From positions 1 through 55,344 of the IMG/VR virus record IMGVR_UViG_3300020042_009027: DNA of 55,344 nucleotides; one strand, written 5' to 3'. This document shows positions 29,497 through 30,222 of this stretch, in pieces. Origin of the DNA: a virus. Lineage: Duplodnaviria; Caudoviricetes. The position numbers and the translations under genes are program-made. Each line of letters begins with the position of its first letter. Within the stretch, counting starts at the first letter, position 1. Under the pieces are notes generated by a model that ran no database searches, was not told where the DNA came from, and was given only the letters and a program-made list of their open reading frames with translations.

Positions 29497-29760
29497 ATGA
29501 ACCTCATCGACAAACGCGCAATCAAGATAGTCCAACTCCAAGAGGAGCTGGAAGAAGCTAGGAAGATCATCACTGACTTCGTGTGGCCCAACGACGGCAC
29601 GAAGGAATCACGCCAACGCTTTGAGCAAAAGGCGGCACGGTTCGCGGGATGCACAGTCCCGATATTCGACGGACAACCCGAGCGACCAAATTCTTTGGGG
29701 AACGCAATAGGTGAGGCACGAGCGGACAGCGCCACGTCGCCGAAGCCACCAACTCAGTAA
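29497..29760 (+). CDS. Cassette-borne hypothetical protein; stop codon lies in the loop of attC site 2
   Basis: MNLIDKRAIK...PPTQ; ATG 6 nt after attC site 1. Confidence 0.65.
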   Translation: MNLIDKRAIKIVQLQEELEEARKIITDFVWPNDGTKESRQRFEQKAARFAGCTVPIFDGQPERPNSLGNAIGEARADSATSPKPPTQ

Positions 29761-29821
29761 CTACCATGAAAACTACAAAATCAAAACGCCCTGCCCGTTG
29801 CTCTCCACCGACTTGTTCGGC
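29697..29821 (-). other. attC: attC-like site 2 (125 bp)
   Basis: GCCGAAC AAGTC GGTG[G]AG[A]GCA[A]CG...CGTGCCTCACC TATTGC GTTCCCC; three extrahelical bases on the R'' arm. Confidence 0.85.
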
Positions 29822-29975
29822 TGGCTTACTGTTCAAGGACGCTCAGATGATGCGGACGTTGCGCGTGCATGAAAAACTCACTGATACGTGGTGGTGTGAA
29901 GGGGTAGACGAGGAAGTTGGGCTGTGGGCCTACTCCGAACAATTCATCCTCAAACATTCTCTGCCGAACGCCTAG
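29766..29975 (+). CDS. Cassette-borne hypothetical protein; starts in the attC2 loop and stops in attC3
   Basis: MKTTKSKRPARCSPPTCSA N-terminus is encoded by the attC arm. Confidence 0.65.
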   Translation: MKTTKSKRPARCSPPTCSAGLLFKDAQMMRTLRVHEKLTDTWWCEGVDEEVGLWAYSEQFILKHSLPNA

Positions 29976-30085
29976 CTCTGGCATCGCTGCCGAGAGCGGA
30001 AGTCTCAACACCAACAAACATACGAAAATGAAAAACACACCGAAGAAAAAGCGGGCAGCGATTGCTCAGGAGCGACTTGTTCGGC
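29963..30085 (-). other. attC: attC-like site 3 (123 bp)
   Basis: GCCGAAC AAGTC GCTC[C]TG[A]GCA[A]TCGCTGCC...GGCAGCGATGCCAGAGC TAGGC GTTCGGC; C and A extrahelical bases as in canonical attC. Confidence 0.9.
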
Positions 30086-30222
30086 TGTCTTGTTGCTGGC
30101 TCTATGATGAGGGACGCAAGTGCAGCAAGGCCGCCACGACAACCAAGAAAGTCCACGCCGACAGCGAAGGAATCTATCGCGGGCAATGGTTCAAAGTCCC
30201 TGTCTGTGACCGCCATAAATAA
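30028..30222 (+). CDS. Cassette-borne Cys/His-rich small protein; starts in the attC3 loop
   Basis: MKNTPKKKRAAIAQERLVRLSCCW...C...VCDRH; possible Zn binding. Confidence 0.65.
   Translation: MKNTPKKKRAAIAQERLVRLSCCWLYDEGRKCSKAATTTKKVHADSEGIYRGQWFKVPVCDRHK

Follow-up and report, generated by a model that had tools for sequence, protein, structure and literature searches.

The window analysed here is the whole of a 55,344-bp IMG/VR virus record (IMGVR_UViG_3300020042_009027, Caudoviricetes), the completeness of which is estimated at about 92%. Between positions 29400 and 30283 it holds an array of four attC or attC-like sites (S1 to S4), each bounded by a left (R') and a right (R'') box, together with three small open reading frames (ORFs) on the + strand that overlap them. 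The features of the array are as follows.

29400-29490, bottom strand = +: S1, attC-like site of 91 nt; R' (29400-29406) ends in AAC and R'' (29484-29490) starts with GTT.
29497-29760, + strand: ORF1, 87 aa from its ATG (TTG start at 29482 in the ORF list), based on 17 homologues and the ratio of non-synonymous to synonymous substitution rates (dN/dS).
29697-29821, + strand: S2, attC site of 125 nt; R' 29697-29703, R'' 29815-29821, loop of ~75 nt.
29766-29975, + strand: ORF2, 69 aa from an ATG in the S2 loop; four homologues.
29963-30085, + strand: S3, the best attC site, 123 nt, with a 62-nt loop and an 8-bp upper stem.
30028-30222, + strand: ORF3, 64 aa, Cys-rich, in frame within the listed ORF 29917-30222; two homologues.
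30229-30283, + strand: S4, short terminal attC-like site of 55 nt with a loop of 8-10 nt, matched by the site scanner described below.

Two DNA motifs are repeated every ~265 nt in the array: the left one ends in AAC, the right one begins with GTT, and each is the inverted complement of the other. The right-hand motif is kept while ORF2 and ORF3 read through it in two different frames and is therefore conserved at the DNA level, not at the protein level. The stems between the motifs vary in sequence from site to site with pairing kept. In the passages of Nivina et al. (2016) on attC structure, the bottom strand consists of an R' box (RYYYAAC), a spacer of 5-6 nt, L', a variable loop, L'', a spacer and an R'' box (GTTRRRY). 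Extrahelical bases are placed on L'' at positions 16 (usually G) and 23/24 (T), with a 6-bp stem between them and an optional third one near position 20, and sites measure 57-141 nt with a variable terminal structure (Nivina et al., 2016). On the + strand, S3 fits this description almost exactly, S2 and S4 also fit, and S1 fits in part. AAC and GTT are present in all four sites and the R-box consensus is followed only in part. The R boxes pair at 7/7 positions in S3, 5/7 in S2 and 4/7 in S4. The unpaired central spacers (left/right) are of 5/5 nt in S3 and 6/5 nt in S2 and S4; S1 departs from the rule, with about 6-9 nt on the left and a long 3' spacer of 9 nt on the right. The extra bases are carried by the 3' arm of the + strand (G16, 21 and T24 in S3; C16, 20/21 and T24 in S2; A16 and T23 in S4), and in these three sites a 6-bp stem separates position 16 from position 23/24. 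S1 has T23 only, with a mismatch at 16, and a G at position 16 is found in just one of the four sites. S1 to S3 are within the published length range and S4 is 2 nt below it. Because the record has no integron integrase, the array, with three or four sites within 884 bp, is classed as a cluster of attC sites lacking integron integrases (CALIN).

The sites were searched for with a rule-based scanner coded from the criteria of Nivina et al. (2016) and checked on the Vibrio record MK672802 and on phage TJE1. The scanner was relaxed after a version requiring the stem directly after the last extra base had missed genuine Vibrio sites. In the window it returned S2 (without mismatches), S3 and S4, with + as the bottom strand, together with seven scattered background matches, and it missed S1. 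Three same-strand matches within 600 nt were reached in 1/100 dinucleotide shuffles of the window, and the S3 score of 24 in 0/100. In MK672802 (a Vibrio phage record that includes intI and part of a chromosomal integron), the array contained 17 of the 19 minus-strand matches, which are thus on the strand of intI and antisense to the annotated cassette genes; the whole record gave six plus-strand matches. In TJE1, the matches at 244-293, 1016-1075 and 1462-1519 coincided with the 3' ends of orf1, orf2 and orf3, with - as the bottom strand. The position of the extrahelical bases and these two canonical controls support the assignment of the + strand as the recombinogenic bottom strand, which is also the coding strand of the array. 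No match to this region was obtained with Rfam at gathering thresholds (whole window) or when 29300-30400 was compared with 50,697 phage records by blastn. The 10-mer of the left R box gave two matches, which is not above chance (86/100 shuffles have at least two).

The + strand ORFs are supported as real conserved genes, by dN/dS for ORF1 and by protein homologues for ORF2 and ORF3. ORF1 has 17 protein homologues (55-94% identity). Its dN/dS, calculated from the window and four DNA homologues (L216-L219; 68 codons, 10 pairs), was 0.08 in the + frame, and substitutions by codon position were distributed 60:50:227, third-position changes being dominant. The open antisense frame gave 0.22 and the other frames gave values above 1. 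No related viral-contig loci were confirmed in the search for the ORF2 and ORF3 families, which is why no DNA-level dN/dS is given for these two genes. In the ORF3 homologues every Cys is invariant, and one of them (P0023) keeps the body from the R''-encoded residues on, with another N-terminus. PHROGs and Pfam searches returned no family for the three + and the three - small ORFs of the array. A canonical cassette is a top-strand ORF with its own attC at the 3' end; here it is the bottom strand that carries the conserved ORFs, and the attC that is kept along with the body of ORF1 sits at its 5' side.

The start codons of ORF2 and ORF3 are inside the sites. Counted within the sites, ATG 29766 falls on base 70 of S2 (125 nt) and ATG 30028 on base 66 of S3 (123 nt); each is in the large loop. 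The last 19 codons of ORF1 are in S2, so that ORF1 crosses one arm of this site, and its stop codon (29758-29760) is in the S2 loop. The TAG of ORF2 (29973-29975) overlaps the 5-nt unpaired spacer that follows the R box of S3 (29970-29974). ORF3 begins within the loop of S3, and 6 nt separate its stop from S4. The placements of the two loop start codons and of the ORF1 and ORF2 stops, as well as the + ORFs running antisense to the canonical reading of attC on a bottom strand that is the coding strand, had been proposed in a preliminary description of positions 29497-30222, and all of them were borne out. The same description had proposed that in mRNA the hairpin displays the start codon in its loop. 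RNA folding predicts this for S3 (-43.3 kcal/mol, z -2.74) and does not predict it for S2 (z +1.44). At the DNA level, the fold of S1 has a z of -1.79.

Arrays of the same type were looked for in other genomes. The exact 26-nt pattern of S2 and S3 was found in one other viral contig (L202, part of record G003) and in none of 185,579 species genomes; because of this absence no host or source integron was identified. The L202 site has arms near-identical to those of S3, compensatory changes in the upper stem and an ATG in its loop, from which an ORF reads the R'' region in the frame of ORF3 and then runs into an unrelated protein. A looser pattern gave more than 120 matches, mostly due to chance; among 121 fetched loci, five had at least three clustered sites. 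Screening of the loci fetched in this way brought out arrays in three viral records, G001, G002 and G003. G001 (44,650 bp, with terminal repeats) is rated 100% complete and is without a tyrosine recombinase. G003 is a phage encoding portal, major head, tail and tail-fibre proteins, a helicase and a primase-helicase.

The attC-first layout was quantified by counting the sites with an internal ATG that opens an ORF of at least 40 aa leaving the site via R''. Such an ORF was present in 11/13 sites of G001, 8/9 of G002, 5/5 of G003 and 2/3 of the window, i.e. 26/30 in total, versus 1/18 in the canonical Vibrio control array. This comparison speaks for the earlier suggestion that a cassette may carry its translation start in its own attC. 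The upstream ORF usually ends within the same site, and in 7/26 cases it overlaps the next start as ATGA. Two further loci with clustered sites, L156 and L201, have few loop ATGs (2/5 and 1/3). G001-G003 share no long DNA with each other, and a single weak protein match (27% identity) to them was obtained among 29 ORFs of the window phage; the layout therefore travels with the arrays and not with the phage lineage. A common phage lineage as the cause of the shared layout was rejected on this single match.

Gene content in the related arrays also distinguishes the strands. Pfam domains were found in 4/6 tested bottom-strand ORFs (Mom, N6_N4_Mtase twice and Dam) and in 0/4 top-strand ORFs of like size. 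Among the 24 ORFs starting inside a site, five had domains above cut-off (the same four and MT-A70), and all five family-assigned cassettes in these relatives are DNA-modification enzymes. G001 alone has at least 11 attC-first cassettes near both record ends (L211 and L213: 621-1553 and 41501-44338), including Dam, N6_N4 and MT-A70 methyltransferases.

A covariance model (R1) was built from a MAFFT alignment, not fitted to structure, of 25 sites in G001-G003, the sites of the window being left out. The RNAalifold structure of these 25 sites has three invariant AAC/GTT pairs, an unpaired spacer, 3 bp, a bulge, a stem, a bulged T and 7 bp; AAC/GTT is invariant in 25/25 sites and compensatory changes occur in 15/18 predicted pairs. 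In the window, R1 matched S3 (63.9 bits, E 6.6e-13), S2 (47.7 bits, E 4.4e-9) and S1 (29396-29494, 35.4 bits, E 3.4e-6); nothing besides these was found at E<=1, S4 being missed. R1 also matched six genuine Vibrio attC sites, all on the bottom strand (E 0.003-0.055). It does not match TJE1 and is therefore a family model, not a general attC detector. In 627 kb of DNA from 80 loci related to the phrog_3704 gene that follows the array, R1 gave two matches. These are single attC-like sites in other phages (L009 72-138, - strand, 45 bits; L008 4632-4699, + strand, 28.8 bits).

Integron integrases cut the AAC of the R' box at AA/C. Several boundaries in the window and its relatives are at the AAC. 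A block of 92.4% identity with locus L216 covers window positions 29404-29705; it begins with the AAC of S1 and extends 2 nt beyond that of S2. The flanks of this block differ: in L216 another gene enters the S1-like site, and a short attC and another gene follow. A site homologous to S1 is thus found upstream of the ORF1 homologue in L216, and an S1-like stretch is also found upstream of the ORF1 core in P0004. Homologues of ORF1 keep the core through the residues encoded by R' of S2, and after the Asn (AAC 29701-29703) their tails differ in sequence and length. Homologues of ORF2 keep the core through the Asn of the S3 R' box, and beyond it all tails are different; one of them (P0018) has the attC-encoded N-terminus of ORF2 with a different tail. 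The comparison of C-termini next to different neighbours called for in the preliminary description thus gave kept cores and differing tails, which supports the proposal made there that the following cassette supplies the C-terminal tail. The contigs from four sequencing runs (freshwater or lake), which cover the array in parts and none of which spans the whole stretch, end at 29404, 29409, 29705, 29789, 29821, 30228, 30231 and 30273, mostly in R boxes; contigs of two runs end at 29705. These data fit a mobile unit in which an attC precedes its gene and which is cut at AA/C on the + strand; this would give the following candidate cassettes.

29406-29702, + strand: cassette Z (S1 and the ORF1 body), with crossovers at 29405/29406 and 29702/29703, based on the L216 block and contig ends.
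29703-29968, + strand: cassette Y, cut at AA/C.
29969-30234, + strand: cassette X, cut at AA/C.

For the putative recombination of the folded bottom strand by an integron integrase at AA|C, the indications are indirect, namely the mosaic block boundaries at the AAC and the divergence of tails after the Asn codon. Three contig joints (29451>30231, 29983>30058 and 29987>30058) have short sides (21-35 nt) of 85% likeness. In L216, an ORF (988-1413) reads in frame and without stop through a short attC-like site (1262-1328, 48.8 bits with R1); its two flanking coding parts may have been fused, or the upstream gene may have lost its stop. In L217, an 86,492-bp metagenome contig opens (1-600) with an ORF1-family cassette that stands behind an attC (54.6 bits with R1). 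No further site follows the AAC of this cassette, and the rest of the contig, which may be bacterial, has long ORFs on both strands.

Integron integrases were found next to two of the related arrays. The tyrosine recombinases of G002 and G003 match TIGR02249 (integron integrase) with 283.2 and 281.2 bits (cut-off 265), which makes these two arrays complete integrons; the window and G001 are not in this class. intI adjoins the array on the bottom-strand side, the classical place relative to attC orientation. It reads in the same direction as the cassette genes and downstream of them, and is probably transcribed by read-through from the array. Its ATG is 40 nt (G002, region 5080-5460 of L210) or 33 nt (G003, region 12560-12760 of L208) past the last AAC; attI is therefore very short or overlaps intI. 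In G003, intI is directly upstream of a phrog_62 helicase gene; the counterpart position in the window is occupied by the phrog_3704 gene and a phrog_62 helicase gene.

Taken as a whole, the stretch 29400-30283 is in all likelihood a four-attC CALIN belonging to a phage-borne family of integron arrays with a mirror-image cassette logic. The geometry of the sites, the strand assignment, the coding strand, the membership of the family and the mosaic boundaries at R boxes are the observations on which this reading is based. The array also has a foreign composition (GC of 0.55 versus 0.43-0.47 in the flanks). It is located in the replication module of a 55-kb tailed phage, with small genes around it. 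On this reading, each mobile unit, read in the direction of phage transcription, would be an attC and then a gene, the recombinogenic bottom strand being the mRNA-like strand. The start codon would be in the large A/C-rich attC loop, the 3' arm (L''-R'') would encode part of the N-terminus, and the gene would reach its end either at the AAC of the following R' box or between a few and about 20 codons beyond it. Because the integrase cuts this AAC at AA/C, exchange of the neighbour would change the C-terminal tail. Exchange could be catalysed in trans by IntI from the host or from a co-infecting integron-bearing phage. Expression would be by read-through phage transcription and translation would start at the loop ATGs; the cassette genes would be accessory, perhaps serving in counter-defence.

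Several observations weigh against this reading. A search of all 55,344 bp of the record for tyrosine recombinases found none (0 PF00589 matches at E<=1). S1 and S4 depart from the usual type, just one of the two detectors catching each of them, and the R boxes deviate from RYYYAAC/GTTRRRY at position 4 (a purine in R' of S3 and S4). S2 alone folds no better than its shuffles, as DNA or RNA, and the DNA fold of S3 has a z of only -1.07. ORF2 may start at an internal Met (ATG 29844 or 29847, giving 43 or 42 aa), from which its homologues P0020 and P0021 are called. In RNA sequencing runs, at most 0.11 of the sampled words were found. Some boundaries do not coincide with the proposed unit: the contig end at 29821 is loose, just outside R''; the ORF1 body is behind a different attC in L217; and in L202, arms like those of S3 precede an unrelated gene. 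These odd boundaries need either an attC likeness throughout the family, as in chromosomal integrons, or occasional top-strand events.

The best-surviving alternative, still an unlikely one, is a fossil: an array derived from attC sites, acquired once and no longer recombining, in which the overlap of starts and stops with the sites reflects genome compaction. It would account for the missing integrase, for the degeneration of S1 and S4, for the reduced R-box pairing in S2 and S4 and, with only two R1 matches in the 80 related loci, for the rarity of the array in the lineage. It is at odds with the contigs that break at R boxes (at all the ends listed above except 29789) and with the same cassette being found between other neighbours in L216; exchange in the population is therefore implied. 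Nor does incidental compaction predict that the loop-ATG layout should prevail, as it does, in four genomes that are unrelated.

A much smaller chance still is given to a structured repeat peculiar to phages that has nothing to do with integron recombination, such as an RNA element located between early genes and serving in processing or translational coupling, or a DNA signal. A start codon in a loop beside a long stem, as in the stable S3 RNA, and the ATGA overlaps with an upstream stop would suit such an element, and no Rfam family matches the repeat, as noted above. The attC geometry is nevertheless matched in detail, including the arm that carries the extra bases, arrays composed of such sites have integron integrases beside them, R1 cross-matches Vibrio attC on the correct strand, the mosaic boundaries are at AAC, and S2 is not stable as RNA. 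Finally, a reading as canonical cassettes, with the - strand ORFs 29373-29735, 29826-30038 and 29950-30327 as the true genes and the + ORFs as shadows, is hardly tenable. These ORFs exist as listed; in favour of the reading, - is the top strand by attC orientation, and each of the five compared sequences has an open antisense frame across ORF1. For ORF1, however, dN/dS contradicts their being the conserved genes, the case the preliminary description had set against its own proposal; for ORF2 and ORF3 this case is answered at the protein level only. The - ORFs also cross cassette boundaries with mostly GTG starts, and in the related arrays Pfam domains were found in bottom-strand ORFs and in none of the top-strand ORFs tested.

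The phage-borne CALIN with mirror-image cassettes may be one instance of a wider system. The odds seem slightly in favour of phages running a mirror-image integron system of their own, with attC-first cassettes, bottom-strand genes, loop starts, read-through in the direction of an intI that has the same orientation, a shared stock of small genes (early or counter-defence) that passes between unrelated phages, and reshuffles that rewrite upstream C-terminal tails. In such a system the non-template position of the bottom strand might also allow hairpin extrusion to be driven by transcription. Parts of this are already published: for phages, Qi et al. (2023; PMC9892861) report integrons and clusters of attC sites, cassettes with methyltransferase genes, and attC sites that IntI1 recombined in their assays. 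The CALINs of virulent phages described there share with the arrays studied here the lack of an integrase and, in some members, the methyltransferase cassettes. TJE1, presented there as a typical CALIN with three attC sites, differs in having the gene before the attC and the bottom strand opposite the genes, whereas in the window the gene follows the attC on the bottom strand and starts within it.

Integrons of the Vibrio type (control L203) have in common with the window the AAC/GTT R boxes, the unpaired spacer, extra bases at 16/20/24, sites of ~120-130 nt, intI on the bottom-strand side of the array and the crossover at AA/C. They differ in that their top-strand genes are expressed from the promoter Pc away from intI, with start codons outside attC; in the phage family the genes run towards intI. 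In the parts of Nivina et al. [quoted passage not shown] Reading frames across a crossover are known from ORF-11 and ORF-18 of attI1, and short ORFs in attC have been reported (PMC8876359). As described in that source, the ORF-11/ORF-18 frames share with the window a tail that depends on the inserted cassette and a translational coupling across the site; they are short top-strand leader peptides aiding the next gene, unlike the cassette proteins with attC-encoded termini on the bottom strand of the window. Synthetic attC sites placed in arbitrary sequence (Nivina et al., 2020; PMC7439510) similarly show, in the account given there, that function depends on structure and that a site can be written into coding sequence. 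Those sites are engineered; the phage arrays would be natural cases with both arms coding. No description was found, in a literature search that did not extend to supplements (including those of PMC9892861), of bottom-strand cassette genes starting in an attC loop or of an intI that is placed downstream of its cassettes and reads in their direction.

Inverted arrays with functional-looking genes and their own integrases would constitute a second viable integron design, in which the recombination site also provides a start of translation and codes for parts of the two neighbours. If the mirror-image reading is true, recombination would yield protein variants as well as new gene orders. Such arrays would provide natural test cases for the sequence freedom of attC, for the origin of cassettes and for a phage-owned cassette pool, as well as for the diversification of protein termini by site-specific recombination. 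Pipelines expecting the gene and then the attC will mis-assign phage cassettes.

The array is flanked by two + strand genes.

29068..29352, + strand: left flanking phage gene, 94 aa, no family (ORF list, family searches).
30329..30952, + strand: right flanking backbone gene, 207 aa, phrog_3704 (family match).

The right flanking gene belongs to the replication module on the + strand, which includes a RuvC-like resolvase gene at 26857, many small ORFs and, 3' of the phrog_3704 gene, helicase, exonuclease and DNA polymerase genes. The phrog_3704 gene has 409 relatives in viral contigs, of which the 80 mentioned above were fetched for comparison. None of these 80 loci shares DNA upstream of about 30318, and none shares DNA or protein of 26857-30328. 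The - strand encodes a protein with a weak large-terminase match and further large ORFs without family, as well as a single ORF of 4515 aa (8336-21883) that takes up ~1/4 of the genome. The 3' end of the left flanking gene (29315-29330) resembles the spacer and L' arm of S4 (repeat D7, 88%) and may be a relic attC arm; contigs of two sequencing runs end at 29330. The genes 28929-29066 and 29068-29352 and their L216 counterpart have the same short terminal peptide and a near-identical stop-to-start junction (around 29050-29070 and 29315-29345 in the window). Further upstream, two adjacent small ORFs (123 and 89 aa; 27778-28367, + strand) share a repeated coiled-coil-like motif and look like tandem paralogues.

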